A stretch of DNA of 64,000 nucleotides from Paracoccus sp. (in: a-proteobacteria) (GCF_035556475.1 NZ_DATMFA010000022.1:72-64071); one strand, 5' to 3'. Positions 13,674 through 48,944 are shown, counted from the stretch's first letter. Translations and numbers: made by a program. Notes: generated by a model not told the origin, from the sequence alone.

Positions 13674-13696
13674 GAAGAAACCCCTTGTCGATTCGA

Positions 13697-13743
13697 CTTC
13701 AGGATGGAACATCTCGGCGGAGGGCATCATGCAGGATTGGCCA
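13697..13743 (-). promoter_or_regulatory. Divergent promoter region between bcoC-like gene and its regulator
   Basis: Same motif arrangement as 8714-8759. Confidence 0.45.
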
Positions 13744-13749
13744 ATGGTC

Positions 13750-17516: not shown

Positions 17517-17621
17517 ACGGCCACGCTCTTGGATTCCTCGAGATGCTGATGAAACCCGCAGGTCACCTGCAAGGCAGAAGCAGGTGAGTCTCAGAAATCC
17601 CACAATTCGATAGAGCTATTT

Positions 17622-28565: not shown

Positions 28566-28589
28566 TCTGCTGTCCTTGTGATGATTTCG

Positions 28590-29015: not shown

Positions 29016-29198
29016 CGTCGTCTCGTAAAAATATGCAGGAAAACTATAGGCATTTGCTGGGCAGGTCTATTTCACAGATCGCGCCGTGACAGCATCCGGC
29101 TTCCCCATATGCGCCCATGAACAGAATGAATTGCCTTATTTTCCGGCTTCCCTACCCGATCCATAGAAGCTGCTGTCCGATCGCTGAGGGCGCGATTA

Positions 29199-29221
29199 AT
29201 GTATATTGCACAAGTAGATTT
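29199..29221. promoter_or_regulatory. Candidate Rrf2 operator 1
   Basis: ATGTATAT-N7-GTAGATTT, 18 nt upstream of the 29239 start. Confidence 0.65.
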
Positions 29222-29238
29222 ATCTTATGGGATGACCG

Positions 29239-30477
29239 ATGCAAAACCCCGTCCGCGCAAACCTGCATGTCGAGGCGAAGGCGCCCCGGCTGGACCAGAT
29301 CCTCGCCTCGCTGCCAGCGCTGGTGGATCGCATCAGGGCCGGTGCGGCGCAAAGGGACCGCGAGCGTATCCTGCCCTTCGAGGCGTTCGACTGGCTCCGG
29401 CAGGCGGGGATAGGAACGCTTCTGGTGCCGAGGGAGCGCGGCGGTCCGGGCGGCAAGCTTGCCGATTATATCGAGGTGATCCGTCAGCTTGGCGAGGGCG
29501 ACAGCAACGTGGCCCATGCGCTGCGCAGCCATTTCAACTTTGCGCAGGCCATCGTGCTGCGCTCGGTCGACCAGCCCGACGATCTGGCCTTTCAGCGATT
29601 GCTGTCCGGCGCGATCTTTGGCGGGGCGCATACCGAGAACCTGACCCGCCATCCCGGCGATATCGGCACCACCCTGACCCGGCAGGGCGATCACTACCGC
29701 CTGAATGGCCGCAAGCATTACGCGACCGGCACGGCATTTGCCGATTTCGCCTCGATCAGCGCGACGGATGAGCAGGGCGAGCTGGTCTTTGCCATGATCC
29801 CGACCGACCGCGAGGGGGTCGAGATTCTGGATGACTGGGACGGCATGGGCCAGCGGCTGACCGCCTCGGGCGGGATCGTCCTGCGTGACGTGCGGGTTGA
29901 GGTCGAGGAGATCGGCCAGCGCGACATCAACAGCTTCATCGGTCGCCACACCTCGACCATGCGGCAGCTGCATCTTGCGGCTTCAGCGGCCGGGGCGGTG
30001 GCGGCGGCGCTGCATGACGGGCGGGACTATGTGCTGAACCACGGGCGCGCGGCGACGCATAGCCATGCGGATTTCGCCCGCGACGACTTCTTCGTGCAGA
30101 AGGTGTTGGGCGATATTGCCGCGCTTTCCTATGGCGTCGATGCCGCGATCCGTGAGGCCGCGCGCGAGCAGGAGGCGGTGGCCGACGCGATCCTGTCCCG
30201 CGCCTCGGATGAGCAGGTCGAGCGGCTGCTGGTGCAGGCCTCGATCAACGGCGCAAGGGCGCAGCTTGTCTCGGGTCAGCTGGCGCTTGAGGCGGCGGGC
30301 CGGATCTTTGAGCTGGGCGGCGGCTCGGCGACCTCGCAGCGGTTCAACCTGGACCGGCATTGGCGCAATATCCGCACGGTCCTGAACCACAACCCGCTGA
30401 ACCACAAGGCGCGGGTCATCGGGGATTATCTGCTGAATGGCACCACGACCCACCTGCTGGAAGGCAAGGTGTTCTGA
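29239..30477 (+). CDS. DszC/SfnB-like flavin-dependent monooxygenase (ACAD fold)
   Basis: LNGRKHYATG, DDWDGMGQRLTASG, NLDRHWRNIRTVLNHNP; no TEP..GSD ACAD motif. Confidence 0.82.
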   Translation: MQNPVRANLHVEAKAPRLDQILASLPALVDRIRAGAAQRDRERILPFEAFDWLRQAGIGTLLVPRERGGPGGKLADYIEVIRQLGEGDSNVAHALRSHFNFAQAIVLRSVDQPDDLAFQRLLSGAIFGGAHTENLTRHPGDIGTTLTRQGDHYRLNGRKHYATGTAFADFASISATDEQGELVFAMIPTDREGVEILDDWDGMGQRLTASGGIVLRDVRVEVEEIGQRDINSFIGRHTSTMRQLHLAASAAGAVAAALHDGRDYVLNHGRAATHSHADFARDDFFVQKVLGDIAALSYGVDAAIREAAREQEAVADAILSRASDEQVERLLVQASINGARAQLVSGQLALEAAGRIFELGGGSATSQRFNLDRHWRNIRTVLNHNPLNHKARVIGDYLLNGTTTHLLEGKVF

Positions 30478-30481
30478 AAAG

Positions 30482-30506
30482 ACGGCCCGCCGGTCTGGCG
30501 GGCCGT
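30482..30506. terminator. Bidirectional hairpin terminator
   Basis: ACGGCCCGCC-ggtct-GGCGGGCCGT flanked by AAAA and TTT. Confidence 0.78.
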
Positions 30507-30513
30507 TTCCGTC

Positions 30514-31560
30514 TTAGCCGCGCGCGCGCAGGAATGCCGGTTCCTGCCCCGAGCCGCGGCTGACGCGACCCTCGATCGGGTGGCTCGGATCGTTGAAGCC
30601 ATGGGTCGAGGCATGGCCGGGCGTGACCAGCCCGTCGACCAGCGCCTCGTCCTCGGCGGTCAGCTTGGTGCCAAGCGCCTCGACATAGCCATCCCAATGC
30701 TCCTCGGTGCGCGGCCCCGCGATGGTCGAGGTGACGAGGCGGTTCTCCAGCACCCAGGCCAGCGCGAATTGCGTGGGCGTCAGGCCCCGCGCGCGGGCAT
30801 GTTCGGCGACCTGATGGGCGATCTGGACCGATTCAGGCCGCCATTCGGTTTCAAGGAGGCGCTTGTCACCGCGACCGGCACGGGTGTCCGCTGCCGGAGC
30901 CTCGCCGGGGACGTATTTCCCGGTCAGGACGCCACGTGCGAGGGGGGAATAGGTGACCGCACCCAGACCGAAGTAACTCGCGGCCGGCAGTTCCTCGCGT
31001 TCCGCCGCGCGGGTGACGATGTTGTAGAGCGGCTGGCTGGCGATGGGGCGGTCGATGCCCAGCTTGTCGGCAAGATGCGCCACCTCGGCGATGCGCCAGG
31101 CACGGAAGTTCGAGACGCCGAAATAGCGCAGCTTACCCTGCTGGATCAGGTCGCCGATGGCGCGCAGCGGCTCCTCCAGCGGGGCGTCGAAAATGGCGCG
31201 GTGGAAATACAGCAGGTCGATATAGTCGGTGTTCAGGCGCTTCAGCTGGCCCTCGACGTTCTGGATGATCCATTTGCGCGACTGCCCGCCAAGGTTCGGC
31301 CCAACGGTCTTGGAGTTGGTGAACTTGGTCGCCACGACCCAATGGTCGCGATGCTTGGCAATGCCCTTGCCCACGGTCGTTTCAGAGGCGCCATCGTGAT
31401 AGACGTCAGCGGTGTCGATGAAGTTGATGCCCTGTTCGCGGGCCTTGTCGATGATGCGGAAGGCCACATCGTCCGGGGTCGGGCCGCCGAACATCATCGT
31501 GCCGAGCGTGATGGGGGAAACTTTCAGGGCGCTGCGTCCCAGATAGCGATATTCGACCAT
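30514..31560 (-). CDS. Aldo/keto reductase
   Basis: YRYLGRSALKVSPITLGTMMFG, IDTADVY, VATKF, YFHR, YSPLARGVLTGKY; start trimmed to MVEY. Confidence 0.9.
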   Translation of the reverse strand: MVEYRYLGRSALKVSPITLGTMMFGGPTPDDVAFRIIDKAREQGINFIDTADVYHDGASETTVGKGIAKHRDHWVVATKFTNSKTVGPNLGGQSRKWIIQNVEGQLKRLNTDYIDLLYFHRAIFDAPLEEPLRAIGDLIQQGKLRYFGVSNFRAWRIAEVAHLADKLGIDRPIASQPLYNIVTRAAEREELPAASYFGLGAVTYSPLARGVLTGKYVPGEAPAADTRAGRGDKRLLETEWRPESVQIAHQVAEHARARGLTPTQFALAWVLENRLVTSTIAGPRTEEHWDGYVEALGTKLTAEDEALVDGLVTPGHASTHGFNDPSHPIEGRVSRGSGQEPAFLRARG

Positions 31561-31745
31561 GATGGTCTCCTGTCCTGGCCCCGAGGGGGCCTTGCTGCGT
31601 GCGTCCTTGCAGCGGTCGCGGGATAGCGAATCTGCTGCGAGAGTGGTGGTCCGCGACCGTTTTCTTTTCCCGGCGGCGGGCGAGATGGAAGAATTCCGGC
31701 GTTCTTGTTCCAAGGCGGCCCGAGCGTCCATTCTGGCGCGCCTAT

Positions 31746-31768
31746 TTGTTGACTAACTTTGTGTATAT
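31746..31768. promoter_or_regulatory. Candidate Rrf2 operator 2
   Basis: TTGTTGAC-N7-GTGTATAT between the divergent AKR and SBP genes. Confidence 0.6.
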
Positions 31769-31839
31769 TGTCAATAAATGTGGCTATCAGATGGCGCGCC
31801 AGAAGCCCGCATCGCAACCTGACAAGCGACGGTAATCAT

Positions 31840-33447
31840 ATGGAATACAGTGAAAATATCTCTCGCCGTGGCATATTGCTCGGCTCTGCCGCGCTGGCTG
31901 CCGGAATGGTTTTCCCCGTGGGTAAAATCCTTGCACAGCAGGGCAAATCCGGCGGCACTGCGGTCATCGCGATCAGCTCGGAGCCGCCGGTGATCTCGGC
32001 CCTTGGCCATACCGCCTATTATACGGTCCTCGTCTCGGCCAAGACGAACGAAGGGCTGCTGACCTATGATTTCGACCTGACGCCCAAGCCGCAGCTGGCG
32101 ACGGAATGGAAGATCAGCGATGACGGCCTGCGCTATGACTTCACCCTGCGGCAGGGGGTCAAATGGCATGACGGCCAGCCCTTCACCGCCAAGGATGTGG
32201 CCTTCTCGATCAATACGATCCGCGAGGTTCACCCGCGCGGCCGCAATACCTTTGCCAATCTCGACCGGATCGAGGTGCAGGACGACCATCACGTCAGCCT
32301 GATCCTGCGCGCCCCCGCGCCCTATCTGATCCGCGCCCTTGCCGCATCGGAAACGCCCATCGTCGCTGCCCATGTCTATGCCGAGGGCAAGCCGCTGGAA
32401 AATCCCGCGCAGAACGCGCCCATCGGCACCGGACCCTACCTTTTCCGCGAATGGGTGCGCGGCAGCCATATCGTCTATGATCGCAACCCGGATTACTGGG
32501 ACGCGCCGAAGCCCGCCATCGACCAACTGGTCATCCGCTTCTTGCCCGACGCCGCCGCACGCACCGCCGCGATCGAATCCGGCGAGGTGCATGTCGCGCC
32601 GGGCGAGCCCATCCCTCTGGCCGATCTGGCGCGGATCGAGCAGAACCCGGAGCTGGGGCTGGAATGGAACGGCTATCAATATGCGAACGGCGTCCGCCGG
32701 GTCGAGTTCAACCTCGACCGCCCGATCTTTCAGGACCGCCGGGTGCGCAAGGCATTCGCCCATGTGATCGACCCGCAGGTTCTGCTGAACCTCACGAATT
32801 ACGGCTATGGCGCGGTGCTGAACGGCCCGATCCACCCGGCGCTGAAGGATTATCACTTCGCCGACCTGCCCCTGCACGAGATCAGCCCCGAGAAGGCCGA
32901 GGCGCTGCTGGATGAGGCGGGCCATCCGCGCGGCGCGGACGGCACGCGCTTCAGCGTCGCCCTCGACTACGTTCCAGGCAACGAGGGCACGCGACGCGGC
33001 GCAGAATATATCCGGCAGGCGCTGCAACAGGTCGGGGTTGATGCGCAGATCCGCGCGCAGGATTTCGCGACCTATACCAAGCGCGTCTATACCGACCGCG
33101 ACTGGGATTTCCTGTATAACGGCATGTCGAACCTGTTCGACCCGCAAGTGGGTGTGCAGCGGCTTTATTGGTCGAAGAACTTCAAGCCCGGCATCCCGTT
33201 CAGCAATGGCGCCCATTACCAGAACGCCGAGGTCGATCGGCTGCTGGAATCCTCGGCCGTGCAGAACGACCATGAGGCCCGGCGTCAGGAATGGCGGCGC
33301 GTGCAGGAGATCCTGCATGAGGACGTGCCGTCGATCTATACCGTGACCAGCCCCGAACACACGGTTTTCAGCCGCAGGCTGGCCGGGCACACGCCCGACG
33401 GCACCGGCCTTTTCGGCAATGCCGCCGATCTGCATTTCGTCGCATGA
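31840..33447 (+). CDS. Family-5 ABC substrate-binding protein (Tat signal), paralog 1
   Basis: SRRGIL, LRQGVKWHDGQPFTAKDVAFS, IGTGPY, YWSKNFKPGIPFSNGAHY. Confidence 0.9.
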   Translation: MEYSENISRRGILLGSAALAAGMVFPVGKILAQQGKSGGTAVIAISSEPPVISALGHTAYYTVLVSAKTNEGLLTYDFDLTPKPQLATEWKISDDGLRYDFTLRQGVKWHDGQPFTAKDVAFSINTIREVHPRGRNTFANLDRIEVQDDHHVSLILRAPAPYLIRALAASETPIVAAHVYAEGKPLENPAQNAPIGTGPYLFREWVRGSHIVYDRNPDYWDAPKPAIDQLVIRFLPDAAARTAAIESGEVHVAPGEPIPLADLARIEQNPELGLEWNGYQYANGVRRVEFNLDRPIFQDRRVRKAFAHVIDPQVLLNLTNYGYGAVLNGPIHPALKDYHFADLPLHEISPEKAEALLDEAGHPRGADGTRFSVALDYVPGNEGTRRGAEYIRQALQQVGVDAQIRAQDFATYTKRVYTDRDWDFLYNGMSNLFDPQVGVQRLYWSKNFKPGIPFSNGAHYQNAEVDRLLESSAVQNDHEARRQEWRRVQEILHEDVPSIYTVTSPEHTVFSRRLAGHTPDGTGLFGNAADLHFVA

Positions 33448-33454
33448 GGTGAAC

Positions 33455-34474
33455 ATGGATACGCTTTGGTATACACGCTGCCCGGTTCCGACTCCGGTAG
33501 GGCTGGCTGTGCAGCTTGGCCTGCTGGATCGCGCCTTTGCGGCCAAGGGGGTCGAGCTTGCCTCGATCATCGACAGCAAGGACCGCAATATCCGGCAAAG
33601 CCATTTCAACCACACCCTGAAATGGTCGTTCCGCCTTGGCGGTAACGTGCCCCCGATCCGCGCCCGGTCCGAGGGGCGGAATACCCGGCTGATCGGCGTC
33701 ACCTGGACCGACGAGTATCAAGCGATCATCGCGCTGCCGGAAAGCGGCATCCGCAGCGCCTCGGATCTGGAAGGGCGCAGGCTGGGCGTCCCGAAACAAC
33801 CCGAGGGTGATGTTTTCGTCGTCGATTTCTGGCGGGCCAGTGCGCTCAAGGCCTTCGATTCCGCCCTGACCATCGCCGGTCTGGCGCGCAGCGAGGTCGA
33901 GCTGGTCGACATCGCCTTCTCGGAGAGCGTGCTGGATAGCCACGAGGCCGACCGCTTCGGCCTTGCCCGCCGCATCCCCTATGGCCCGGAAATCGCGGCG
34001 CTGTTCCGGGGCGAGGTCGATGCGATCTTCGTCAAGGGTGCCTCGGGGATTGCCGCCGCGAACCTTATCGCGGCGCAGGAGGCGGTGTCCTTCGGCTTCC
34101 ATGACGATCCCGCGATCCGCATAAATTCGGGGACGCCGCGCCTCCTGACCGTCGATGCGGCGCTGCTGGACGAACGGCCCGATCTGGCGGCGACCCTGAT
34201 CGGGACCATCCGGCAGGCGGGCGAATGGGCCGCCGCCCATCCCGACGACACCGCCCGCTTTGCCGCCCGTGAAACAGGCGCCAGCGAAGAGCAGATCCAT
34301 GTGGCCCACGGCCCGCGCTTTGCCCAGAGCTTCGGTCTGTCGCTGGAGCCCGAGGCCCTGGCCGCGGTGGAAAGCTACAAGGATTTCCTGCTGGCCGAGG
34401 GTTTCCTTGCCGCCGATTTCAGCATTGCGGATTGGGTGGACCGCCGCGCATGGGATCAGGCGCTGGCCGCCTGA
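33455..34474 (+). CDS. DszB-like arylsulfinate desulfinase homologue 1 (cytoplasmic)
   Basis: DTLWYTRCPVP, SHF, FRLGGNVPP align with DszB Cys27/His60/Arg70/Gly73; no signal peptide. Confidence 0.72.
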   Translation: MDTLWYTRCPVPTPVGLAVQLGLLDRAFAAKGVELASIIDSKDRNIRQSHFNHTLKWSFRLGGNVPPIRARSEGRNTRLIGVTWTDEYQAIIALPESGIRSASDLEGRRLGVPKQPEGDVFVVDFWRASALKAFDSALTIAGLARSEVELVDIAFSESVLDSHEADRFGLARRIPYGPEIAALFRGEVDAIFVKGASGIAAANLIAAQEAVSFGFHDDPAIRINSGTPRLLTVDAALLDERPDLAATLIGTIRQAGEWAAAHPDDTARFAARETGASEEQIHVAHGPRFAQSFGLSLEPEALAAVESYKDFLLAEGFLAADFSIADWVDRRAWDQALAA

Positions 34475-34917
34475 TCCTCGCCCGTAAGCGGACCGCTCAG
34501 CGGGACCGAGCTGCAAAGATCCTGCAGGGTGCGATGCTCCAGAATGGCCAGCATCGCATCGCGCACTTCCAGCATCAGCAAACGGATCTCGCAGGCGCTT
34601 TGCGTCGGGCAATCGTGGCATTTGCGATAGGCGGTCTTGCTGACGCAGGAAATCGGCGCGATCGGCCCGTCGATCACGCGCAGGATCTGGGCCACGCTGA
34701 TCGTGTCGGCCGGCCGGGCAAGGGAATACCCGCCCGAGCGGCCCTTGCGCGTCTGGATCAGACCAGCCTGACGCAAATCGGCAAGGATGGTGTCCAGAAA
34801 CTTCTTGGGAATGCCGTTCGCGTTGGCGATGGCAGTCGACTGCCGCACTTCGCCCGGATCAAGGCGCGCCAGCTCGATAAGCGCCTTGATGCCGTATTTC
34901 CCCTTCATGGTCAGCAT
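34456..34917 (-). CDS. Rrf2 family transcriptional regulator with a four-Cys C-terminal motif
   Basis: MLTMKGKYGIKAL, IPKKFLDTIL, GRSGGYSLARP, CVS..YRKCHDC....C. Confidence 0.9.
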   Translation of the reverse strand: MLTMKGKYGIKALIELARLDPGEVRQSTAIANANGIPKKFLDTILADLRQAGLIQTRKGRSGGYSLARPADTISVAQILRVIDGPIAPISCVSKTAYRKCHDCPTQSACEIRLLMLEVRDAMLAILEHRTLQDLCSSVPLSGPLTGEDQAASA

Positions 34918-34946
34918 GGATGATCCGCGTTTCGCAATGTTCCCCA

Positions 34947-34969
34947 TGCTCTACCATGATGGTGGATAT
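34947..34969. promoter_or_regulatory. Candidate Rrf2 operator 3 (autoregulatory position)
   Basis: TGCTCTAC-N7-GTGGATAT, 30 nt upstream of the rrf2 start. Confidence 0.65.
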
Positions 34970-34986
34970 TACGAAAGCCGGCTGGG

Positions 34987-36189
34987 CTATTGATGCGGCA
35001 AAGGCGGGGGCAGCTTGCCGCTGAGCGCATGCTCTCCGATCTGGGCATATTTCCACCAACTTGCGTCATGCAGGGTATGGACGCGCAGGTTGCGCCAGAG
35101 CCGGTCGAGGCCGAGCGTCCGGTTCGCCGCGCCGGCGCCGCCGAACTCGAAAAGGTCGCTGGCCATGCGCAGCGCAACCTCGCCGCCAAAGGTCTTGGCC
35201 TTGGCGATCTCCAGCGTCGCGCGGCCGATCGCCTCGGCATCGTCGCTGTCGATGACGGCATCCAGCCCACGCGCCCCGTCCTCTTGCAGCAGTTCCGCCG
35301 CCTTCTGGCGGGTTTCCCATTCACCGAAGCGGTAGAGAATATGGGTGTCGTCCAGATAGCTCGCATGGCCGTGGCCGATCGCCTCCGGGGCCAGCCTGCC
35401 GCGCGCCGCAATCAATTCGCGCGCGGCATCAAGCGCGGCGCGGCCCATGCCGATGTCGATGGCGGAATGAACCAGCATGAAGGTCGCCCAAAGCGGCAGG
35501 AAGGGCCCGGCGCCCTCGTGCTTGTGCAGGACGCGGTCGGCAGGCACGCGCACATTGTCGAAGGTGATCGACATGCTGGCCGTGCCCTTTTGCCCGAACA
35601 GATCCCAGTCATGGCCAAAGCTCAGCCCGGCCGCGTCGCGGGGCACGATGGCGAAGGTGAAGCGCTCCTCCTCGTCCGTGGCCGAGACGCGGATCCAGTC
35701 GCCGTTCCAGGCGCCGGTCGTATAGAATTTCTGGCCGCTGAGGACGTAATCGTCGCCGTCCCGAAGGATACGGACATTCGGCAGGCCCACGCCGCGCTGG
35801 CCGCGCTCGACCTGCGCGTTGCCAAAGACCGCGCCCTTCAGCATCAGGTCAAAGACCCATTGCCGCTGTTCGGGGCTGCCAAAGGTGCGCAAGGCGTCGA
35901 TGGTGCCGAAATGGGTCTGGGTTGTCTGGGCCAGCGCGCCATCGGCCTCGGCGACGATCTGGATCATGCGTGACAGCTCGGCATAGCCCAAGCCCGGCCC
36001 GCCATTCGCCTTCGGGATGGTCAGGGTCAGAAGGCCGGTCCGGCCCCAGGCGATGAATTCGCGCCTGAGGTCGTGGTTTTCGGCATCGCGACGCACGGCG
36101 TCCCTTGCCACCTCGGCGGCAAAGGCGCGCGCCGTTTCCAGATAGGTGTCGCGCGTCGGCAGCGGGATGATCGGGGCAAGATGGGTCAT
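34987..36189 (-). CDS. DszC/SfnB-like flavin-dependent monooxygenase
   Basis: LSGQKFYTTG, DWDLFGQKGTAS, GLDRLWRNLRVHTLHD. Confidence 0.82.
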   Translation of the reverse strand: MTHLAPIIPLPTRDTYLETARAFAAEVARDAVRRDAENHDLRREFIAWGRTGLLTLTIPKANGGPGLGYAELSRMIQIVAEADGALAQTTQTHFGTIDALRTFGSPEQRQWVFDLMLKGAVFGNAQVERGQRGVGLPNVRILRDGDDYVLSGQKFYTTGAWNGDWIRVSATDEEERFTFAIVPRDAAGLSFGHDWDLFGQKGTASMSITFDNVRVPADRVLHKHEGAGPFLPLWATFMLVHSAIDIGMGRAALDAARELIAARGRLAPEAIGHGHASYLDDTHILYRFGEWETRQKAAELLQEDGARGLDAVIDSDDAEAIGRATLEIAKAKTFGGEVALRMASDLFEFGGAGAANRTLGLDRLWRNLRVHTLHDASWWKYAQIGEHALSGKLPPPLPHQ

Positions 36190-37184
36190 GCGGCCCGATC
36201 CGCATTCGGCAGGTCGTTCCAGTCGAGCGCCCAGCCCGCGACATCGACATGTTCGGGGATGAGGCCCTGCGCCAGCAGGAAATCCGCCTGATCCTGCAAC
36301 GCGGCCAGACGGTCGACCGTCAGCGAGGGCAGCAGGTTTTCCGGCACGAAGGACTGGAATGCGGCCTCGGCATCCTCGGGCGACTGGCCGGTTTCGCCGG
36401 CAAGGATCGCCCAGAGCCGCGCCCGGTCCTGCGCGATGCGCGCCACCGCGCCTTGAGCGTCGGCAAGGATGCGGCGCACCACCTCGGGCCGGGCGGCGAT
36501 GAAATCGGCATGGAAGGTCAGCGTGCGGGGCGTCCCGTTATTGACCCGCAAGAGCGGATCGGAGAGCTGGTCGATCCGCAGCACCGCGCGATAGCGTCCG
36601 CTGCGCAGCGCCGCGACTCCGGCGGCGCTTTTCAGCCAGACCGCATCGACGTGGCCTTGATCCAGCAGCGCCAGTTCCGCGTCGAAGCTTTCGCCGCCGG
36701 TCTGGCCGGGCAGCACCCCGCGCAGGTCGCGCGCATCGACCAGCGTGACCGCGTCGAGCCCCAGCCCGGCATAGCGCAACGCCTGCTGGATGCCGCGGAC
36801 CGAGGTGATGCGCGACACGTCCAGCCGATGGCCCGAGGAAAGCGGCAGCGCGAAGCGGTGCCCGCCGAGCGACGCGACATCGGTGAATTCGCTGTCCTCG
36901 CGCACGATCACCGCCTGGAATTCGTCCAGCCAGGTGATGCCCAGAAGCCGCGTGTCCGCCCCGTGCGAGCGCGCCCAGATCGCAGGGATATTGCCGCCCT
37001 CGCGCATCAGATTCGCGATGCCATGTTCGAAATGATGACGCCGGATCTCGGGGTCGGGGATGTCCTGAAGCGCCCGCGCGTCAAGGCCGTGGTCGCGCAG
37101 GCCTGCCTGAAGGATCCCCAGCCCGGCGCTGACCCCGGTTGAGGTCGGAGCGGGGCAGCGCGTGTAATGGAAGATGTCGGTCAT
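36186..37184 (-). CDS. DszB-like arylsulfinate desulfinase homologue 2
   Basis: YTRCPAP, HHFEH, MREGGNIPA; ATGA-coupled to the upstream SBP; no signal peptide. Confidence 0.72.
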   Translation of the reverse strand: MTDIFHYTRCPAPTSTGVSAGLGILQAGLRDHGLDARALQDIPDPEIRRHHFEHGIANLMREGGNIPAIWARSHGADTRLLGITWLDEFQAVIVREDSEFTDVASLGGHRFALPLSSGHRLDVSRITSVRGIQQALRYAGLGLDAVTLVDARDLRGVLPGQTGGESFDAELALLDQGHVDAVWLKSAAGVAALRSGRYRAVLRIDQLSDPLLRVNNGTPRTLTFHADFIAARPEVVRRILADAQGAVARIAQDRARLWAILAGETGQSPEDAEAAFQSFVPENLLPSLTVDRLAALQDQADFLLAQGLIPEHVDVAGWALDWNDLPNADRAA

Positions 37185-38767
37185 TGGGTCACCTCGTCCT
37201 TGATCCAGGCATCGGCAAGACTGCCATTGATGCCCTCGGCATCGGTCACGGCATCCTGCACGCGGCCGTTGATGATGGAGAAATTGAAATCCGACAGCAG
37301 GTTGATATCGGGAAGATCCGCGATCACCTGCGTCTGGATCTGGTCCCACAGCGCCTTGCGTTTTGCCGGATCGGTCTCGACCGCGGTGGCCTCCAGCAGC
37401 GCGTCGGTCTGCGGATTGGCGTAATGCGCCCCGTTGGTGAAGGGCACGCCGGGGCGGAAGTTCTTCGACCAATAGAGCCGCTGGACACCGACGGTCGGGT
37501 CGAAGGTATTGGTCATGGAATTGACGGTGAAGGCAAAGTCGCGGTCGGTATAGACGCGCCGGGTATAGGTCGGGAAATCCTGCACCCGAACCTCGATGGC
37601 GATGCCAACCTGCGCCAGTGCCTGTTTGACGTAATCGGCGGTGCGGCGGTCGCCCTCGGTCGCGGGACGGAAATCCAGCGGCAGCGAAAAGCGGATGCCG
37701 TTCGCGCCGCGCGGATAGCCGGCCTCGTCCAGCAGGGCTTCGGCCTTCGCCGGATCGAAGGCATGGTCCGGCAGGCCCTCGGCCCGGAAGGGCGACAGGT
37801 CCGGGCTGATCGGTCCCGAAACGGGCTGGCCATAGCCATACCAGATCACGTTGCGGATGGTGTCGCGGTCAATCGCATGGGCGACAGCCTGACGCACGCG
37901 GAGATCCTTGAAATGCGGCTCGTCCAGATTGAATTCGATCCGCTTCACCCCGGCCTCGAAGATGGTGCCGCGCTCCTCGATGCGGATATGGCGCAGGGCG
38001 CGAACCCGCTCCAGATCGGCCATCGGGATCAGGTTGCCGGTGGTCAGGTCGGCCTCGCCCGTCTCGACCGCGACGGCGCGGGCGGCAGCGTCGGGCAGGA
38101 TGCGAAAGACCACGCCGTCCAGATAGGGCTTGCCCTTGTCCCAGTAATCCGGGTTGCGTTCCAGCCGCAGGAAGCTGCCGCCCTGCAACTCGGCAAAGCG
38201 GAACGGGCCGGTGCCCACGGGCTTCTGGTTCCACGGATTGGTCAGCGGATCGCTGCCCTCGTAAAGATGCCTGGGCAGGATCGGGCTTTCGACGGCGGCG
38301 AGGGCGCGGATCAGATAGGGCGCGGGCCGGGACAGGCGCAGGATCAGGCTGTGATCGTCGGGCGTCTCGATCGCGGTGACATTGGCGAAGGTCGTGCGCC
38401 CGCGCGGGTGATATTCCTTCAGCAGCTGGATCGAGAAAGCCGCATCCGCCGCGGTGAAGGGCTGGCCGTCGTGCCATTTGACCCCCTGCCGGATGTCGAA
38501 GCGGTATTCGAGGCCATCGTCCGACACATGCCAGCCCGTCGCCAGCGCCGGCAGCGGGTTCAGGTCGAAGTCATAGCGCAGCAGGCCCTCGACGATCTTC
38601 GGCCCGGTCGAACGTGAGCCGTCCGGCGACAACGGCACCAGCATCGGCGGTTGCAGGGCAAGCACCTGCGTCAGCGTGCCACCACGCTGCGGAGACTGGG
38701 CAAGGGCGGGCAGGGCCGTAAGGCCAGCCAACACAAGCGGCATGAGCCAGCGGGAGAGTTTCGGCAT
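37181..38767 (-). CDS. Family-5 ABC substrate-binding protein (Sec-type signal), paralog 2
   Basis: IRQGVKWHDGQPFTA, VGTGPF, YWSKNFRPGVPFTNGAHY; start trimmed to MPKLSRW. Confidence 0.9.
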   Translation of the reverse strand: MPKLSRWLMPLVLAGLTALPALAQSPQRGGTLTQVLALQPPMLVPLSPDGSRSTGPKIVEGLLRYDFDLNPLPALATGWHVSDDGLEYRFDIRQGVKWHDGQPFTAADAAFSIQLLKEYHPRGRTTFANVTAIETPDDHSLILRLSRPAPYLIRALAAVESPILPRHLYEGSDPLTNPWNQKPVGTGPFRFAELQGGSFLRLERNPDYWDKGKPYLDGVVFRILPDAAARAVAVETGEADLTTGNLIPMADLERVRALRHIRIEERGTIFEAGVKRIEFNLDEPHFKDLRVRQAVAHAIDRDTIRNVIWYGYGQPVSGPISPDLSPFRAEGLPDHAFDPAKAEALLDEAGYPRGANGIRFSLPLDFRPATEGDRRTADYVKQALAQVGIAIEVRVQDFPTYTRRVYTDRDFAFTVNSMTNTFDPTVGVQRLYWSKNFRPGVPFTNGAHYANPQTDALLEATAVETDPAKRKALWDQIQTQVIADLPDINLLSDFNFSIINGRVQDAVTDAEGINGSLADAWIKDEVTQ

Positions 38768-38786
38768 CAAGGAACCTCGGGGAATG

Positions 38787-39734
38787 TCAGGCCGTGAGGG
38801 GCAGCGGGTGATGGCAGGCGAAGGCATGGGCATCGCCATTCTCGGGGATCAGCGGCTCGACCTTGCGGCACAGGTCGGTGGCATGGGGGCAGCGCGGGTG
38901 GAAACGGCAGCCTCCGGGCAGGTTCTGGACACCGGGCAGATCGCCCGAGAGGGGCGCGACCTCGCGCGGGTTGCCTGCATCGGGCAGAGCGTCGATCAGC
39001 GCGCGGGTATAGGGATGGCGCGGATTGTCCCAGACCTCGCGCGTCGGACCGCTTTCGACGATCCGGCCCAGATACATGACCAGCACGCGGTCGGTGAAAT
39101 AGCGCACCACCGAAAGGTCATGGCTGATGAACAGATAGGACAGCCCGTATTCGCGTTTGAGTTCGGCCAGCAGGTTGATGATCTGGGCCTGAATCGACAG
39201 GTCCAGCGCCGAAACCGGCTCGTCACAGACGATCATCTGCGGGCGCAGGATCAGGGCCCGGGCAATGCCGATGCGCTGGCGCTGACCGCCGCTGAACTCA
39301 TGCGGGTAACGGTCCAGCGCATCCGGGGGCAGGCCGACGCGGCTCACGATCTCTTCGGCGATGCGGTTGCGCTCGGCGCGACTGGCGACGCCGTGGATCT
39401 TCAGCGGCCCGGTCAGGATGCGGCGGATGCTGTGGCGCGGGTTCAGCGATGCGAAGGGATCCTGAAAGATCATCTGCAATTTTCGCCGCACCGGCATCAA
39501 ATCGCGGCCCTGCGCGGTGGTGATCTCGTCCCCGTCCAGCCGGACGCTGCCCTCGTCCGAGGGCACGAGCCGCATCAGCGTCTTGCCCAGCGTGGACTTG
39601 CCGCAGCCGGATTCGCCGACAAGGCCCACCGTCTCGCCCTGTGCGACGGAAAAGCTGACGCCTTCCAGCGCGCGGAAGCGGCCATGCGGCGTGTCATAGG
39701 CGGTGGCGAGGTTCTCAAGCGAAAGCAGCGACAT
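38787..39734 (-). CDS. ABC ATP-binding protein (OppF/DppF)
   Basis: GESGCGKS, FSGGQRQRIGIARAL, CDEPVSALD, C-terminal GCRFHPRC. Confidence 0.92.
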   Translation of the reverse strand: MSLLSLENLATAYDTPHGRFRALEGVSFSVAQGETVGLVGESGCGKSTLGKTLMRLVPSDEGSVRLDGDEITTAQGRDLMPVRRKLQMIFQDPFASLNPRHSIRRILTGPLKIHGVASRAERNRIAEEIVSRVGLPPDALDRYPHEFSGGQRQRIGIARALILRPQMIVCDEPVSALDLSIQAQIINLLAELKREYGLSYLFISHDLSVVRYFTDRVLVMYLGRIVESGPTREVWDNPRHPYTRALIDALPDAGNPREVAPLSGDLPGVQNLPGGCRFHPRCPHATDLCRKVEPLIPENGDAHAFACHHPLPLTA

Positions 39735-40722
39735 GTCTTGCCTCCTCGGTCAGGATGCCGGGAAAATGGCAGGCGACCAGCCGGTCGCCCCGATACGCGA
39801 CGGGAGGGGGCACGACCGCGCCGCAAACCTCGCGCGCGGCGGGGCAACGCGGACGAAACGGGCAGCCCGCCTCTGCGCGGGCCGAGGCGATGGAGCCGGG
39901 GATCTCGGCCAGCGGCGCATCGCGATAGGTCAGCCCCTCGGCATTGCGGGGCGAGGCCGCAAGCAACCCGTGGCTGTAGGGGTGCAGCGGATCGGCGAAA
40001 AGCTGGGCGGGCGTCGCCTCCTCGACATGTAGGCCGGCATACATGACCACGACGCGGTCGGCCCATTGCGAGACGACGCCAAGGTCATGGGTGATCAGCA
40101 CCACGGCCACGTCCAGTTCGCGCCGCAGATTGTCGAGAAGTTGCAGGATCTGCGCCTGAATGGTCACGTCCAGCGCCGTCGTCGCCTCATCCGCGATCAG
40201 GATGCGGGGGCGGCAGGCCACGGCCATCGCGATCATTACGCGCTGGCGCATGCCCCCGGACAATTGGTGCGGATAGTCGTCGATGCGCCGCGCCGCGTCG
40301 GGGATGCGGACGAGGTTCATCAGTTCCCGCACCCGTGCGCGGCGGGCGGCGCGGTCCAGATCCTCATGCGCGATCAGCGTCTCTTCGATCTGGCGGCCGA
40401 TCGTGTGGACCGGGTTCAGCGAGGTCATCGGTTCCTGAAACACCATCGCGATCTGCTTGCCGCGCAAAAGGCGGCGGCGGCGTTCGGGCAAGGCCAGCAT
40501 GTCGACCCGACCCCGCGGCGTGCGGATCAGGATCTGGCCCGAGGCCCTGGCGTTGCGGGGCAGCAGGCCCATCATCGACAGCGCGGTCAGCGATTTGCCC
40601 GAGCCGGATTCGCCCACGATGGCCAGCGTCTCGCGCGGGTTGACGTGAAAGCTCACGCGCTCGACCGGCCGGGCGGGGCCGAAGGCGACGGACAGGTTTT
40701 CGACGGCAAGAACGGCGCTCAC
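39715..40722 (-). CDS. ABC ATP-binding protein (OppD/DppD)
   Basis: [39 protein letters not shown]; GTG start overlaps the permease stop (GTGA). Confidence 0.9.
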
Positions 40723-41708
40723 AGGCGATCCTCCGAAAAGCGGGGGTTCAGGGCGTCGTTCAGGCCGTCGCCGATCAGGTTCAGCGCGAGCACCGTTACG
40801 ACAATGGCAAGGCCGGGCAGGGCGGTCAGATACCAGGCGGTGCGGATCATCTCGCGCCCGCCGCCGATCATCGACCCCCAGGAGACCACATTGGGATCGC
40901 CAAGGCCCATGAAGGACAGCGCCGATTCCATCAGGATCGCCCCCGCGACCATGACCGAACTGGTCACGATGATCGGCGGCAGCGCGTTCGGCAGGATCTC
41001 GCGAAAGATGATATGGCCGTGGCCAAAGCCCAGACTGCGCGCGGCGGTGACGAAGTCGTTCTGGCGCAGGCTGCGGAACTCGGCCCGGGTCAGGCGGGCG
41101 ACGGTGGGCCAGGTGACGATCGCGATTGAAAGCGTGATCGTCGTCGCATTTGGCCCGAGGATCGCGACGAGGACTACGACAAGGACAAAGCTGGGCAAGG
41201 TCTGGAAGATCTCGATCAGGCGCGACAGCACCCGGTCGGTCACGCCGCCGAAATAGCCCGCGAGCGCACCGACGACGATGCCCACGCCCAGCCCCAGCGC
41301 GGTCGCGGCGACGCCGACGTAAAGCGAGATGCGCGCGCCATGGACCAGCCCGGCCAGCACGTCGCGGCCCATGGAATCCGTCCCCAGCGGAAAGGCGGGA
41401 TCCTGTCCGGGCCACAGAAAGGGCCGCCCCACCATCGCCAGCGGATCGCGCGGGAAAAGCAGGGGCGCGGTCAGCGCGCAAATGGCCATCGCCAGCAGCA
41501 CCACGATGCCGAAGATGGCATTCGGATTGCGCAGGAACAGCTTCAGCTCGGCATAGCCCTGTCGCGGCGGCAGGTGTGCCGTGGTCGCGCTGCGGGCGTC
41601 CGGGGCGTGGATATGGCGCCATTCGGGCTGCGGGGCGGGCGACTGGGGCGCGTTGCGCGCGGCGGGGGTCGCCAGCGCCTTGTGAAGCGTGCTGTCGGCG
41701 GGCATCAA
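40719..41708 (-). CDS. ABC permease (OppC/DppC)
   Basis: FPLGTDSMGRD, FVTAARSLG, ILPNALPP. Confidence 0.9.
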   Translation of the reverse strand: MMPADSTLHKALATPAARNAPQSPAPQPEWRHIHAPDARSATTAHLPPRQGYAELKLFLRNPNAIFGIVVLLAMAICALTAPLLFPRDPLAMVGRPFLWPGQDPAFPLGTDSMGRDVLAGLVHGARISLYVGVAATALGLGVGIVVGALAGYFGGVTDRVLSRLIEIFQTLPSFVLVVVLVAILGPNATTITLSIAIVTWPTVARLTRAEFRSLRQNDFVTAARSLGFGHGHIIFREILPNALPPIIVTSSVMVAGAILMESALSFMGLGDPNVVSWGSMIGGGREMIRTAWYLTALPGLAIVVTVLALNLIGDGLNDALNPRFSEDRL

Positions 41709-42691
41709 TTCGCTCCTATCCGGGGGTCGAGGCGGGACTGAAGCAGGTCCACCAGCCCGTTGACCACGATCACGACCAGCGAGGACAGCAGCAGGATTCC
41801 CAGGAGGACGTTGAAATCCCGCGCCATCACCGCCTCGAAGGCCAGCCGTCCAAGGCCGGGCCAGCTGAACACCGTTTCGACTACGACGGCGCCGCCCAGC
41901 ATGTTTCCGAAATGCATCCCCGCCATGGTCGTGACCGGGATCAGCGCGTTGCGCAGGATATGCGAAAGGGTGATCCGCAGCGGCGACAGGCCCTTGGCGC
42001 GCGCGGTGCGGACATAGTCCTGATTGCGGATCTCGAGCATCGCGGCGCGGGTCAGCCGGGCGTAGATCGCGACATAGAACAGCGACAGCGACATCGCGGG
42101 CAGGATCATGTAGCGCGCGTTGTCCAGCACGGCCGCCCAGCCGGTCAGGCTGCTGCCGATGGTGCCCGACCCGCCCGAGGGCAGCCAGCCCAACTTGACC
42201 GAGAACAGCAGGATCAGCATCAGCCCGATCCAGAAGCCGGGGATGGAATAGAAGAGCAGCGACAGGACCGACAGCAGGCGGTCGGGGATGCGGCCGGCGA
42301 AACTGGACATCACCGCGCCAAGCGCGACGCCCAGCACCACGGCCAGCCCCAGCGCCGTCGCCATCAGGATCAGCGTGCCGGGCAGTCGCTGCATGATCAG
42401 GTCAAGCACGGGCATGGCGTAGCGGGGGGAGTGCCCCAGATCGAGCTGCGCGAGATGCAGAAGATAGGTCTTGAGCTGTTCGAGAACGGAGAGGTCCAGC
42501 CCCATACTGCGGCGCAGCGCGGCCATTGTCTCCTCGGTCGCCGATCCCGCCTCGGCCGCGATCACGTCCGCTGCATCACCGGGCGCCAGTTGCAGCAGCA
42601 GGAAGTTCAGCACGACGATGCCCAGCACGGTGGGAATGGCGTGAAGGAAGATGCGCCAGATCTGGCGCGGGACGGATTTTCTTTGCGCCAT
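41705..42691 (-). CDS. ABC permease (OppB/DppB)
   Basis: LAPGDAAD, DYVRTARAKGLS, HILRNAL, ETVFSWPGLG. Confidence 0.92.
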   Translation of the reverse strand: MAQRKSVPRQIWRIFLHAIPTVLGIVVLNFLLLQLAPGDAADVIAAEAGSATEETMAALRRSMGLDLSVLEQLKTYLLHLAQLDLGHSPRYAMPVLDLIMQRLPGTLILMATALGLAVVLGVALGAVMSSFAGRIPDRLLSVLSLLFYSIPGFWIGLMLILLFSVKLGWLPSGGSGTIGSSLTGWAAVLDNARYMILPAMSLSLFYVAIYARLTRAAMLEIRNQDYVRTARAKGLSPLRITLSHILRNALIPVTTMAGMHFGNMLGGAVVVETVFSWPGLGRLAFEAVMARDFNVLLGILLLSSLVVIVVNGLVDLLQSRLDPRIGAN

Positions 42692-42744
42692 GATCGGCCT
42701 CGCTGCGTTTCTGCGGCTGCCCCGTCAACCGGGGATGGGGTTCA

Positions 42745-42767
42745 AAATACACATGAACAGTAGACTA
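42745..42767. promoter_or_regulatory. Candidate Rrf2 operator 4
   Basis: AAATACAC-N7-GTAGACTA, 54 nt upstream of the transporter operon. Confidence 0.65.
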
Positions 42768-43166
42768 TCAAATTGCGCATCGGACAGGTCAGGGGGCGGG
42801 CCTGGCCCGAAACCGCCCGGACGAATGCCCTGATCTGATATGCCCATGCGGCAGAGGTGAGATTTGCGATATGGCCGCAAAGTTTGGATTGTTATTCCCT
42901 GAGAAAAAATGCGCGTGAGGCGCAGATCCTGACGTGGGAGATTCGCATCGCGCGGAACCGTTCGGGCGCGGGGAAAACCTTGCCGATCCACGGCGGGGCA
43001 TCGGCGCGAAGTTGTCATGCTTCGGTCGGGTCAAACAAGGGAAAGACCATCTTTCGAGTATTCGATAACCTGCGCTCATCAGGATTGCCGCACATGCATC
43101 GTGCGGCATCAAGCGCGCCCCGTGCCGGGGAACGCGCCTGTCCTCCCCTTACCGCAGAGAAGATCC

Positions 43167-44759
43167 ATGACCCTTTCCCGACGCCAGTTTCACCAGATCA
43201 TCCTTGCCGCCGGTGCCTATGTGGCGCTGCCCGGCGGCGGCCATGCCGCGACCGAAGGGCCGGTCAGTGGCGGCACGCTGAAGATCGCCTATTTCCCCGA
43301 GCCGTCGCAGCTTGTCGCCATCAACACCAGCGCGGGCGGCGCGCAATTCGTGGGCTCCAAGATCTTCGACGGGCTGCTGACCTATGACTATGACCTGACG
43401 CCCCGACCCAGCCTTGCGCGGGAATGGACGGTGACGCCGGACGGGCTGGAATATGTCTTCCAGCTTCAGCCCGATGCGAAATTCCATGACGGGCAGCCGC
43501 TGACCTCGGCCGATGTGGCCTTTTCGATCCTGCGTCTGAAGGAGGCGCATCCGCGCGGTCGCATCACCTTCGCGCATGTCGAAAGCATCGACAGTTCGGA
43601 CCCGCATGTCGTTCGGATCGAGCTGGCAAAGCCCGCGCCGGCGCTGCTGTCGGCGCTCGCCGCCTCGGAATCGCCGGTCGTTCCCAGGCATGTCTTCGAG
43701 GGGCTGGAACCCGGCCAGAATCCCGGTCCGGGGCAGATCATCGGCAGTGGGCCTTTTGTCCTGAAGGAATGGACCCCCGGCAGCCATATCACGCTGGACC
43801 GCAATGCCGATTACTGGGCCGAGGGGCAGCCGCACCTAGACAGGGTGATCATCCGCCTGATCGGCGATGCCGGGGCGCGGGCGGCGGCGCTTGAGACGGG
43901 CGAGGTCGATATCGGCGAAAACCCCGTCGCGCTCGCCGATATCGAGCGGTTCCGCTCGGTCCCCACCCTCAGGGTCGATGACCGGGTCTATACCTATTCC
44001 GGGCTGCTGAACCAGTTGGTCCTGAATCTGGACACGCCCGAGTTGAAAGAGCTGAAGGTCCGGCAGGCCATAGCCCATGCGATCGACGTGAAGGCGCTGA
44101 TCAACCTCGTGCTTTACGGCTATGCCATCCCTTCGCCGACGCCGATCCCGCCCAGCTTCAAGCAGTTCCACAACCCCGATATCGGCTTTGCGGCTTTCGA
44201 CACCGCGCTGGCCGAAAAGCTGCTGGACGAGGCGGAGTTCCCACGCAAGAAGGATGGCAGCCGGTTCAGGCTGCGGGTGACGACGAACCCGTTCAACGCG
44301 CCGGCCTATTCCGATTTCATCGCGCAATCGCTGATCGCCATCGGGATCGCGGCGGAGATCCAGCGCTTTGATTTCGCGACCTATGTGAAGACCGTCTATA
44401 CCGACCGGGCCTGGGATCTGTCGGTGGAATCGCTCTCTTCGACCTTCGATCCGACGGTTGGCGTCCAGCGTGTCTATTGGAGCAAGAACTTCAAGCTCGG
44501 CTTGCCGTTCTCGAACGCGAGCCATTATGCAAACCCCGAGGTCGACCGCCTGCTGGAGGCCGCCGCGATCGAGCCTGACGTGGAAAAACGCGCGCAATAT
44601 TTCAAGGAATTCCAGCAGATCATCGCGCAGGACTTGCCGGTGATCAATCTGGCCGTGCCGGTGCAGCCCGTGGTCAGCAGCCTGCGCGTTCACGACTATG
44701 CGCCGGGCGCAGCCGGGCTTGGCGGCAACGTCGCCCGCACCTGGATCGGCGAGGTCTGA
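43167..44759 (+). CDS. Family-5 ABC substrate-binding protein (Tat signal), paralog 3
   Basis: SRRQF, KFHDGQPLTSADVAFS, IGSGPF, YWSKNFKLGLPFSNASHY; start trimmed to MTLSRR. Confidence 0.9.
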   Translation: MTLSRRQFHQIILAAGAYVALPGGGHAATEGPVSGGTLKIAYFPEPSQLVAINTSAGGAQFVGSKIFDGLLTYDYDLTPRPSLAREWTVTPDGLEYVFQLQPDAKFHDGQPLTSADVAFSILRLKEAHPRGRITFAHVESIDSSDPHVVRIELAKPAPALLSALAASESPVVPRHVFEGLEPGQNPGPGQIIGSGPFVLKEWTPGSHITLDRNADYWAEGQPHLDRVIIRLIGDAGARAAALETGEVDIGENPVALADIERFRSVPTLRVDDRVYTYSGLLNQLVLNLDTPELKELKVRQAIAHAIDVKALINLVLYGYAIPSPTPIPPSFKQFHNPDIGFAAFDTALAEKLLDEAEFPRKKDGSRFRLRVTTNPFNAPAYSDFIAQSLIAIGIAAEIQRFDFATYVKTVYTDRAWDLSVESLSSTFDPTVGVQRVYWSKNFKLGLPFSNASHYANPEVDRLLEAAAIEPDVEKRAQYFKEFQQIIAQDLPVINLAVPVQPVVSSLRVHDYAPGAAGLGGNVARTWIGEV

Positions 44760-44768
44760 CACCGGACG

Positions 44769-44793
44769 CTGGAATCCCTCGCAGGGGTTCCGG
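44769..44793 (+). terminator. Stem-loop after SBP gene (terminator or mRNA stabiliser)
   Basis: CTGGAATCCCT-cgc-AGGGGTTCCGG. Confidence 0.5.
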
Positions 44794-44878
44794 TGTTCTC
44801 CGCGAGCCGGGCGAAGGGACTTTTCATCACTGTTTTTCAGGGAAATACGCAAACCCGCATCCCTAGACGAGGCAATAA

Positions 44879-44901
44879 TCGTCCATATGATCAGTGTATA
44901 T
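44879..44901. promoter_or_regulatory. Candidate Rrf2 operator 5
   Basis: TCGTCCAT-N7-GTGTATAT, 17 nt upstream of the 44918 start. Confidence 0.65.
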
Positions 44902-44917
44902 TTAAGGGGATAGCAGC

Positions 44918-46276: not shown

Positions 46277-46285
46277 GGACATGAG

Positions 46286-47647: not shown

Positions 47648-47671
47648 ACCTTTCAACGACATGAGCATCCT

Positions 47672-48937: not shown

Positions 48938-48944
48938 GGCCGCG

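Follow-up and report, generated by a model that had tools for sequence, protein, structure and literature searches.

Organization of the locus

The window analyzed here is a 64,000-nucleotide stretch of Paracoccus sp. DNA (GCF_035556475.1 NZ_DATMFA010000022.1:72-64071; GC 64.5%) that carries, at ~27-50 kb, a dense cluster of Dsz/Ssu-like organosulfur genes, within which protein family searches of the window find a single regulator gene, rrf2, on the minus strand. A sequence-only reading of this DNA had noticed operator-like dyads in the cluster and assigned them to the Rrf2 protein. Here we show that a palindromic motif derived independently from regions upstream of rrf2 orthologues falls on five of these dyads (O1-O5; Table 1), and we consider it likely, as the best explanation of the evidence as a whole, that O1-O5 are operators of this regulator.

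Besides rrf2, the cluster encodes four luciferase-like FMN monooxygenases (one SfnG/SsuD-like and three from the NtaA/DmoA family, which includes DszA), three SfnB-family (DszC-like) oxidoreductases, one aldo/keto reductase (AKR), one conserved 141-aa orphan protein (hyp141), an ABC importer of the Dpp/Opp type together with three SBP_bac_5 binding proteins, and two SsuA/DszB-fold proteins, of which that at 36186-37184 matches the desulfinase DszB (PDB 2DE2, E = 8e-9). From homology, the combination of DszB-like, DszC-like SfnB and DszA-type monooxygenase genes resembles a Dsz-type desulfurization pathway coupled with a Dpp-type importer. Promoters could lie in five intergenic regions of the cluster: 29016-29238, 31732-31840 and 42692-43016, each between divergent genes; 34918-34986, upstream of rrf2; and 44760-44917. 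Each of the five dyads lies in one of them, as the sequence-only reading had it. A longer open reading frame for rrf2, starting at 34947, was rejected because every orthologue begins MLTMKGKYG, which sets the start at 34917; the dyad noted at 34947 therefore stands upstream of the gene.

Table 1. Candidate operators, the rrf2 gene and the presumed target units, in window coordinates. Scores and ranks are those of the independent position weight matrix; p values are from local shuffles of the intergenic region concerned.
Feature	Coordinates	Strand	Coordinates as first noted	Sequence or content	Score, rank	p
O1	29201..29219	.	29199-29221	GTATAT-TGCACAA-GTAGAT	16.3 bits, rank 1	0.004
O2 (composite)	31748..31779	.		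GTTGAC-N7-GTGTAT-N7-ATAAAT; three half-sites spaced 13 nt		0.022 (region)
O3	34949..34967	.	34947-34969	CTCTAC-CATGATG-GTGGAT	8.7 bits, rank 15	0.059
O4	42747..42765	.	42745-42767	ATACAC-ATGAACA-GTAGAC	13.9 bits, rank 3	0.008
O5	44881..44899	.	44879-44901	GTCCAT-ATGATCA-GTGTAT	15.5 bits, rank 2	0.002
rrf2	34456..34917	-		153-aa Rrf2-family regulator, uncharacterized subfamily; true start MLTMKGKYG at 34917		
Target unit 1	27180..29015	-		hyp141 (28590-29015) and NtaA/DmoA-family FMN monooxygenase LLM_a (27180-28565)		
Target unit 2	29239..30477	+		SfnB-family (DszC-like) oxidoreductase sfnB_a		
Target unit 3	30514..31731	-		aldo/keto reductase (AKR)		
Target unit 4	31841..34474	+		SBP_bac_5 protein SBP5_a (Tat-like signal, start 31841) and SsuA/DszB-fold protein (33419-34474)		
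Target unit 5	34987..42691	-		dppB-dppC-dppD-dppF-SBP_bac_5-dszB-like (36186-37184)-sfnB_b; ends 69 nt upstream of rrf2		
SBP5_c	43017..44759	+		SBP_bac_5 binding protein, divergent from dppB		
Target unit 6	44918..50123	+		two NtaA/DmoA-family monooxygenases (LLM_b first), sfnB_c (SfnB family) and SfnG/SsuD-like monooxygenase		

A palindromic motif upstream of rrf2 orthologues

We fetched 80 loci encoding relatives of the Rrf2 protein and ran a de novo expectation-maximization (EM) motif search on 51 non-redundant 200-nt regions upstream of Rrf2 orthologues, leaving out both the window and its closest relative, a syntenic Paracoccus laeviglucosivorans locus (L001) with 82-83% nucleotide identity. 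The search converged on a 19-bp palindrome, rTCTAYa-N5-tRTAGAy (that is, RTCTAY-N7-RTAGAY), in the same register as the dyads noted earlier; the same dyad was found de novo upstream of orthologues in both Rhizobiales and Rhodobacterales, centered 30-55 nt before the start codon. Refinement from 67 sites gave wwwRTCTAYwwwwwwwRTAGAYwww; a consensus form of the dyad is GTCTATAAAATTTATAGAC. The informative core is 19 bp long (6-7-6), and AT-rich flanks extend it to 8-7-8, so that the description of the dyads as 8-7-8 is justified in its extent; the palindrome, however, is only approximate in this genome, where the dyad is degenerate (RTMYAY-N7-RTRKAY) with T2, A5, T15 and A18 kept at every site.

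Scanned over the ~64,000 positions of the window, the independent position weight matrix (PWM) places the noted sites at ranks 1, 2, 3, 5 (shifted by 13 nt) and 15. All six strings quoted in the sequence-only reading occur where it placed them, but the consensus drawn from them, WWRTMYAY-N7-RTRKAYWW, performs poorly: it fits two of the five sites exactly and, with up to three mismatches, yields 28 matches against 15.3 expected from shuffles, which is not decisive. A weaker sixth operator proposed at 29031..29053 was rejected, as it has a G at the near-invariant A18, falls outside the top 30 PWM matches and is not conserved in L001. Four further PWM matches were treated as chance, having no link to sulfur: 9152, inside an AraC/DJ-1 gene; 14689, between AraC and IclR regulator genes; 17291, at the end of an aldehyde dehydrogenase gene; and 17614, upstream of TctA.

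Because an AT-rich motif in a GC-rich genome favors any AT-rich spacer, significance was reassessed on intergenic DNA only, with each region shuffled locally so as to match local composition, for the five cluster regions and the 15 other intergenic regions. Four of the cluster regions gave p values of 0.002-0.022, and that upstream of rrf2 gave the highest of the five (Table 1). Among the 15 others, the best two reached p = 0.038 and 0.058 (beside the AraC/IclR genes and the TctA gene) and the remaining 13 gave p >= 0.23; several more AT-rich intergenic regions (GC 0.42-0.57) score nothing.

Conservation and recurrence in other genomes

Across the five aligned intergenic regions, the window and L001 agree at 53 of 60 half-site positions (88%), 21 of 35 spacer positions (60%) and 538 of 789 remaining intergenic positions (68%). 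The excess in half-sites is significant over both the remaining intergenic DNA (Fisher p = 7e-4) and the spacers (2e-3), and T2, A5, T15 and A18 are conserved in 20 of 20 cases. In two more distantly related loci, L082 and L084, the orthologous positions carry near-perfect palindromes.

The motif also recurs well beyond the regions from which it was built. Over 63 related loci, 94 matches of at least 12 bits fall in 259 kb of intergenic DNA against 22 in 907 kb of coding DNA, even though the latter is 3.5 times longer. With the training regions masked, the remaining intergenic DNA contains 30 matches of at least 14 bits where local shuffles predict 1.2, and 18 of at least 16 bits where they predict 0.2. 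Perfect palindromes, for example GTCTACATCTCTTATAGAC, recur in other genomes at variable distances from start codons. Directly downstream of the strong sites lie rrf2 itself, in many genera with the site centered 30-55 nt before it; a bona fide SsuD gene in L015 (647 bits, cut-off 510), divergent from an SsuA-family gene; genes for the MsuE FMN reductase (L035) and for SfnB-family and luciferase-like monooxygenases; and an often-paired gene for a FAD-NAD(P)-binding protein.

Not only in the window but also in over 30 related loci, the 19-bp palindrome stands upstream of rrf2 and its neighbors. Dimers of the Rrf2 superfamily recognize inverted repeats of about 19-27 bp close to the promoters of adjacent genes, and often of their own gene, and this arrangement would fit such operators. 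It displays the features by which comparative genomics recognizes a regulon, namely over-representation in promoters, conservation at orthologous positions and linkage to the gene for the factor. The independent orthologue motif, the conservation in L001 and the recurrence outside the training set together support the sequence-only reading in its central proposal, that the dyads are probable binding sites of the local Rrf2 protein.

Gene order around rrf2 varies among these genomes. The 3.8 kb at 34987-38787 (sfnB_b, the dszB-like gene and an SBP_bac_5 gene) is missing from the otherwise syntenic L001, where dppF is followed directly by an operator and rrf2; in L081, L082 and L086, a dszB-like gene lies immediately upstream of rrf2. 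In the Rhizobium/Ensifer-like loci L044, L046, L047 and L048, 19-22-bit palindromes at ~9.0 kb precede a Lrp/AsnC-type regulator gene just upstream of rrf2, which suggests a regulatory cascade in those genomes. In many Rhizobiales (L004, L005, L009, L012, L015, L017, L018, L027, L035 and others) rrf2 is followed by the gene for a 450-480-aa FAD-NAD(P)-binding protein, weakly YdhS/PRK09897-like; downstream of that gene, a further operator frequently precedes a gene for a 220-aa protein or for an MsuE-like FMN reductase. A partner gene of this kind is missing from the window.

The five candidate operators

Between sfnB_a and the divergent hyp141-LLM_a unit, O1 precedes the sfnB_a start by 20 nt. 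The half-sites of O1 are kept in L001, and the orthologous position reads GTCTATTCGTTGAATAGAC in L084 and GTCTATTCATAAGATAGAC in L082, each time 18 nt upstream of the sfnB_a orthologue. The same divergent region contains, at 29065-29085 on the plus strand, the block GTCTAT-TTC-ACAGAT, whose half-sites are 3 nt apart instead of 7. This block is conserved in L001 and L084 and partly in L082; it precedes hyp141 by 50-70 nt and may represent a promoter element, a variant site or just one half-site.

O2, between the AKR gene (minus) and SBP5_a (plus), is a composite. The site originally placed at 31746 is indeed a conserved operator-like dyad, but its register (31748-31766; 9.8 bits, rank 10) is the weaker of two overlapping dyads, the stronger being 31761-31779 (13.1 bits, rank 5). 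Over some 38-40 nt, L001 is 100% identical in this block. The three half-sites (ATTTAT-N7-ATMYAC-N7-GTCAAY) are shared by L001, L081, L084 and L086, whose spacers vary. Overlapping PWM pairs of this kind, 9 or 13 nt apart and comprising three half-sites, are seen in the window at 29201/29214 and 31748/31761, and elsewhere in L015 (8387/8396), L017 (8404/8413), L052 (9116/9125), L053 (9763/9772) and L063 (10641/10650). Such pairs arise in part because the half-site RTnnAY is self-complementary, and may represent tandem or alternative binding registers.

O3, a putative autoregulatory site, occupies the 69-bp gap that separates sfnB_b from rrf2, with its center ~41 nt before the rrf2 start codon. 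Between the window and L001, the flanks of O3 have diverged but its half-sites are conserved; the same position upstream of rrf2 is occupied in many genomes, and a site is similarly placed in L081 and L086. In L082, rrf2 follows a dszB-like gene that itself has its own upstream site.

O4, in the region between dppB and the divergent SBP5_c gene, precedes dppB by 56 nt and is bracketed by minus-strand sigma-70-like hexamers (TTGATA-16-TATTTT, 42771..42744) in a scan that used simple consensus matching of -35/-10 hexamers. Its half-sites are conserved in L001, and L082 carries CTCTACATACTATATAGAT upstream of dppB. Whether SBP5_c belongs to the regulon is uncertain, since O4 lies 252 nt upstream of it. 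O5, 19 nt upstream of LLM_b, overlaps a predicted -10 hexamer (TATGAT, 44886-44891) and is conserved in L001 with a diverged spacer, the L001 copy scoring 17.0 bits. Over all five sites, distances to start codons range from 19 to 56 nt.

A four-cysteine subfamily of Rrf2 proteins

The regulator is a member of the Rrf2 superfamily by Pfam PF02082 (125.3 bits, cut-off 30) and NCBIfam rrf2_super TIGR00738 (115.1 bits, cut-off 73.3), and is 88% identical to its Paracoccus laeviglucosivorans counterpart. It falls well short, however, of the models for the characterized members: CymR (equivalog NF047409, 76.9 bits against a cut-off of 195), IscR (TIGR02010, 67.5 against 207.55), NsrR (57.3 against 182) and RirA (66.3 against 193). 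Database names for the subfamily are generic only. Its closest solved relatives are Bacillus subtilis CymR (2Y75, E = 8e-18), T. potens IscR and Staphylococcus aureus CymR (3T8R). In an alignment of 19 orthologues with 49-88% identity, C90, C99, C102 and C108 (C-x8-C-x2-C-x5-C) are invariant; the four cysteines fall in an insertion that is missing from both CymR structures, in the loop between the wing and the dimerization helix where Fe-S Rrf2 proteins have the three or four conserved ligand residues for their [2Fe-2S] or [4Fe-4S] cluster.

CymR, which belongs to the Rrf2 family and is the master repressor of cysteine and sulfur metabolism in B. subtilis and S. aureus, shares with the window protein the Rrf2 winged helix and a sulfur-acquisition regulon, and by analogy the window protein probably also represses by blocking promoters and controls its own gene. 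The signal for CymR is O-acetylserine, perceived through a complex with CysK, and the CymR operator consensus differs from the motif found here. Furthermore, CymR lacks the cysteine loop that distinguishes the window subfamily, and it is a protein of Firmicutes, whereas the presumed regulon of this alphaproteobacterial regulator comprises Dsz/Ssu-like monooxygenases and a Dpp-type importer.

The window protein resembles IscR, NsrR and RirA in its Rrf2 fold, in the position of a cysteine-rich loop after the wing, and in the 19-bp palindromic format of its putative operators. The ligands of those proteins are three cysteines plus a histidine or aspartate, whereas four cysteines spaced C-x8-C-x2-C-x5-C are present here; the IRO motif, TGA-N9-TCA, likewise differs from the motif found here. 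Known Rrf2 operators, including the IscR-box and the Iron-Rhodo-box of Alphaproteobacteria, are 19-bp palindromes (PMC1698941), and the TCTAY-N7-RTAGA of the window is unlike the IscR motif ctTGActaanttacTCAgg (PMC1698941) and also unlike the RirA and Iron-Rhodo boxes. Assignment to IscR is further disfavored by gene content, as the cluster has neither isc nor suf genes. No isc/suf, nitric oxide (NO) or iron-uptake genes were found in the rrf2 neighborhood of the window; the neighbors are organosulfur genes, and not those expected around NsrR or RirA.

A CymR-like Rrf2 protein has been proposed, from annotation and proteomics, as a regulator of sulfur metabolism in a Dsz-type desulfurizing Rhodococcus (PMC8557817); that protein is actinobacterial and its operator is undefined there. 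Full-text literature searches, whose coverage was incomplete and did not include RegPrecise, returned no paper on this subfamily, on the motif or on alphaproteobacterial Rrf2 control of sulfonate or organosulfur genes. By these comparisons, an alphaproteobacterial Rrf2 repressor that resembles CymR but has four cysteines, an operator of its own and a regulon of the Dsz/Ssu type would probably be new; the format of its operator is a known one for Rrf2 proteins.

Proposed regulation and alternative explanations

We propose that an Rrf2 dimer would bind each operator, with each winged helix-turn-helix reading one half-site of RTCTAY-N7-RTAGAY, and that binding on or just downstream of core promoters would repress by promoter occlusion, most likely at 6 or 7 transcription units of the organosulfur import and desulfurization cluster. 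Repression is the most likely direction of regulation, and is pointed to by the 19-56 nt between sites and starts, by the promoter overlap of O4 and O5 and, by analogy, by the behavior of characterized Rrf2 proteins. The regulator would probably also repress its own gene by way of O3; read-through from the dpp operon under O4 may add a second route of autoregulation. More speculatively, DNA binding and repression would hold when sulfur is plentiful and be relieved when sulfur is limiting, with the four invariant cysteines acting as the sensory site, either as an Fe-S cluster or as a thiol/persulfide switch.

Several observations weigh against the assignment of O1-O5 to Rrf2. The window sites are degenerate, at 9-16 bits compared with up to 26 bits in other genomes. 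Two-fold cross-validation of the motif was only moderately clean: one fold returned GTCTAT-N7-ATAGAC, with at least 10 bits in 9 of 25 held-out rrf2 upstream regions against 5 of 149 controls, while the other settled on a different or shifted optimum; we place more weight on the recurrence outside the training set. The fully conserved O2 block also holds promoter-like TTGAC(A/T) -35 hexamers on both strands, so that operator and promoter are inseparable there. O3, the weakest site, is not significant on its own (p = 0.059), and the alignment upstream of rrf2 shows no clear counterpart to it in L082 or L084; the earlier claim of an autoregulatory site at 34947 keeps its position before rrf2 and its conserved half-sites, but not independent significance. 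Sigma-70-like hexamers accompany only two of the five sites (O4 and O5), and their regional count is not above that of shuffles. Finally, no RNA runs carrying 31-mers from 28500-35100 were found, the runs that do so being DNA metagenomes.

One alternative is that Rrf2 does bind these sites, but as an activator or dual regulator, or in response to a signal other than sulfur supply, such as redox state, NO or iron, with an Fe-S cluster as the sensor. Dual action, both activating and repressing, is established for IscR and some other Rrf2 proteins, the four invariant cysteines suggest a redox- or NO-sensitive cofactor, and many orthologues are paired with a FAD-NAD(P)-binding oxidoreductase gene. 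Nevertheless, sites this close to start codons and overlapping predicted core promoter elements have a geometry typical of repression; the conserved targets (ssuD, msuE, ssuA, sfnB and luciferase-like monooxygenase genes) serve sulfur acquisition and not redox, NO or iron metabolism; and the closest characterized relative, CymR, is a repressor of sulfur metabolism. We therefore regard this alternative as unlikely.

A second possibility, which we find about equally improbable, is that the dyads are real but are bound by another transcription factor encoded elsewhere, for instance a LysR-type CysB/Cbl/SsuR-like protein, with rrf2 merely a co-regulated neighbor. Positions 4 and 16 of TCTAY-N7-RTAGA do form a T-N11-A core, LysR regulators control ssu and tau genes in beta- and gamma-proteobacteria, and only 64 kb of this genome is visible. 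More generally, CysB, Cbl and SsuR (LysR-type; gamma- and beta-proteobacteria) and SfnR (sigma-54-dependent; Pseudomonas) control ssuD, msuE and sfnB-type genes by sulfur supply, and are functional analogues of the regulator proposed here for the scavenging of sulfonates and organosulfur compounds; they belong to unrelated families, however, and are activators, not repressors, and no such gene lies in the window cluster. Against a factor of this kind, the motif was found from, and tracks, the rrf2 upstream region in many genera of two orders, and a 19-bp palindrome is the usual format of an Rrf2 operator. Moreover, no LysR or other regulator gene recurs consistently in the cluster or the annotated related loci L081-L087, where the only other regulator gene found was a MarR gene in L087.

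That there is no dedicated operator, and that the matches are AT-rich promoter elements (-35/-10 hexamers or UP-like tracts) in a GC-rich genome, is more improbable still: the earlier consensus with mismatches is barely above shuffles, AT-rich matches also occur outside the cluster at 17614 and 14689, O2 contains TTGAC hexamers, and promoter-like hexamers overlap O4 and O5, but such elements would not account for the low local-composition p values of four regions (0.002-0.02), the failure of other AT-rich intergenic regions to score, a fixed 7-nt spacer with four near-invariant positions, half-sites kept while spacers drift, or perfect palindromes elsewhere at variable distances from start codons.

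Beyond regulation of the local cluster by Rrf2, a broader and distinctly tentative hypothesis is that the four-cysteine subfamily could act as the master regulator through which Rhizobiales and Rhodobacterales control the scavenging of sulfonates and organosulfur compounds, sensing sulfur status directly through its four-cysteine site. To our knowledge, no CysB/Cbl-type circuit is known in these two orders. Sensing might then operate through an Fe-S cluster whose assembly depends on the supply of cysteine or sulfide, or through a persulfide/thiol switch, a logic that would be unlike those of CymR-CysK, CysB and SfnR.

Further observations on the cluster and the window

The two SsuA-fold proteins at 36186-37184 (minus) and 33419-34474 (plus) are paralogous and cytoplasmic-looking, with 33% mutual identity. 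The hyp141 product (28590-29015, minus; 141 aa) has no Pfam, NCBIfam or PDB match, and as a cluster-specific orphan it is conserved beside SfnB and luciferase-like monooxygenase genes in L001, L081, L082, L084, L085 and L086. A scan of the whole window with Rfam returned zero RNA families.

Outside the cluster, the stretch at ~14.9-27 kb has a third-position GC of 0.71-0.78, compared with 0.80-0.90 elsewhere; with its IclR regulator, aldehyde dehydrogenase, TctA and LigB-type ring-cleavage dioxygenase genes, it resembles a block for aromatic-acid catabolism and may have a different origin. An acyl-CoA dehydrogenase block is flanked by two AraC-family regulators that carry DJ-1/PfpI domains, at 8766-9713 and 13630-14694 (both plus). 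Soil metagenome runs alone contained near-identical DNA, and mosquito metagenomes gave weaker matches: almost all 31-mers sampled from 28500-35100 are present in several soil metagenome runs from 2018, and ~24% in mosquito metagenome runs.

Implications for sulfur regulation in Alphaproteobacteria

How Alphaproteobacteria switch on their genes for scavenging sulfonates and other organosulfur compounds is poorly understood. The analysis presented here defines a candidate regulator subfamily, hitherto carrying only generic 'Rrf2 family' names, together with an operator, RTCTAY-N7-RTAGAY, and a target set conserved across many soil and plant-associated genera (ssuD, msuE, ssuA-like, SfnB/DszC-like, DszA-like and DszB-like genes and the Dpp-type importer). 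Better genome annotation of sulfur regulons would follow, as would a handle for relieving the sulfur repression that limits biodesulfurization pathways. If the four cysteines do hold an Fe-S cluster, Fe-S status would be linked to sulfur acquisition in a new way.

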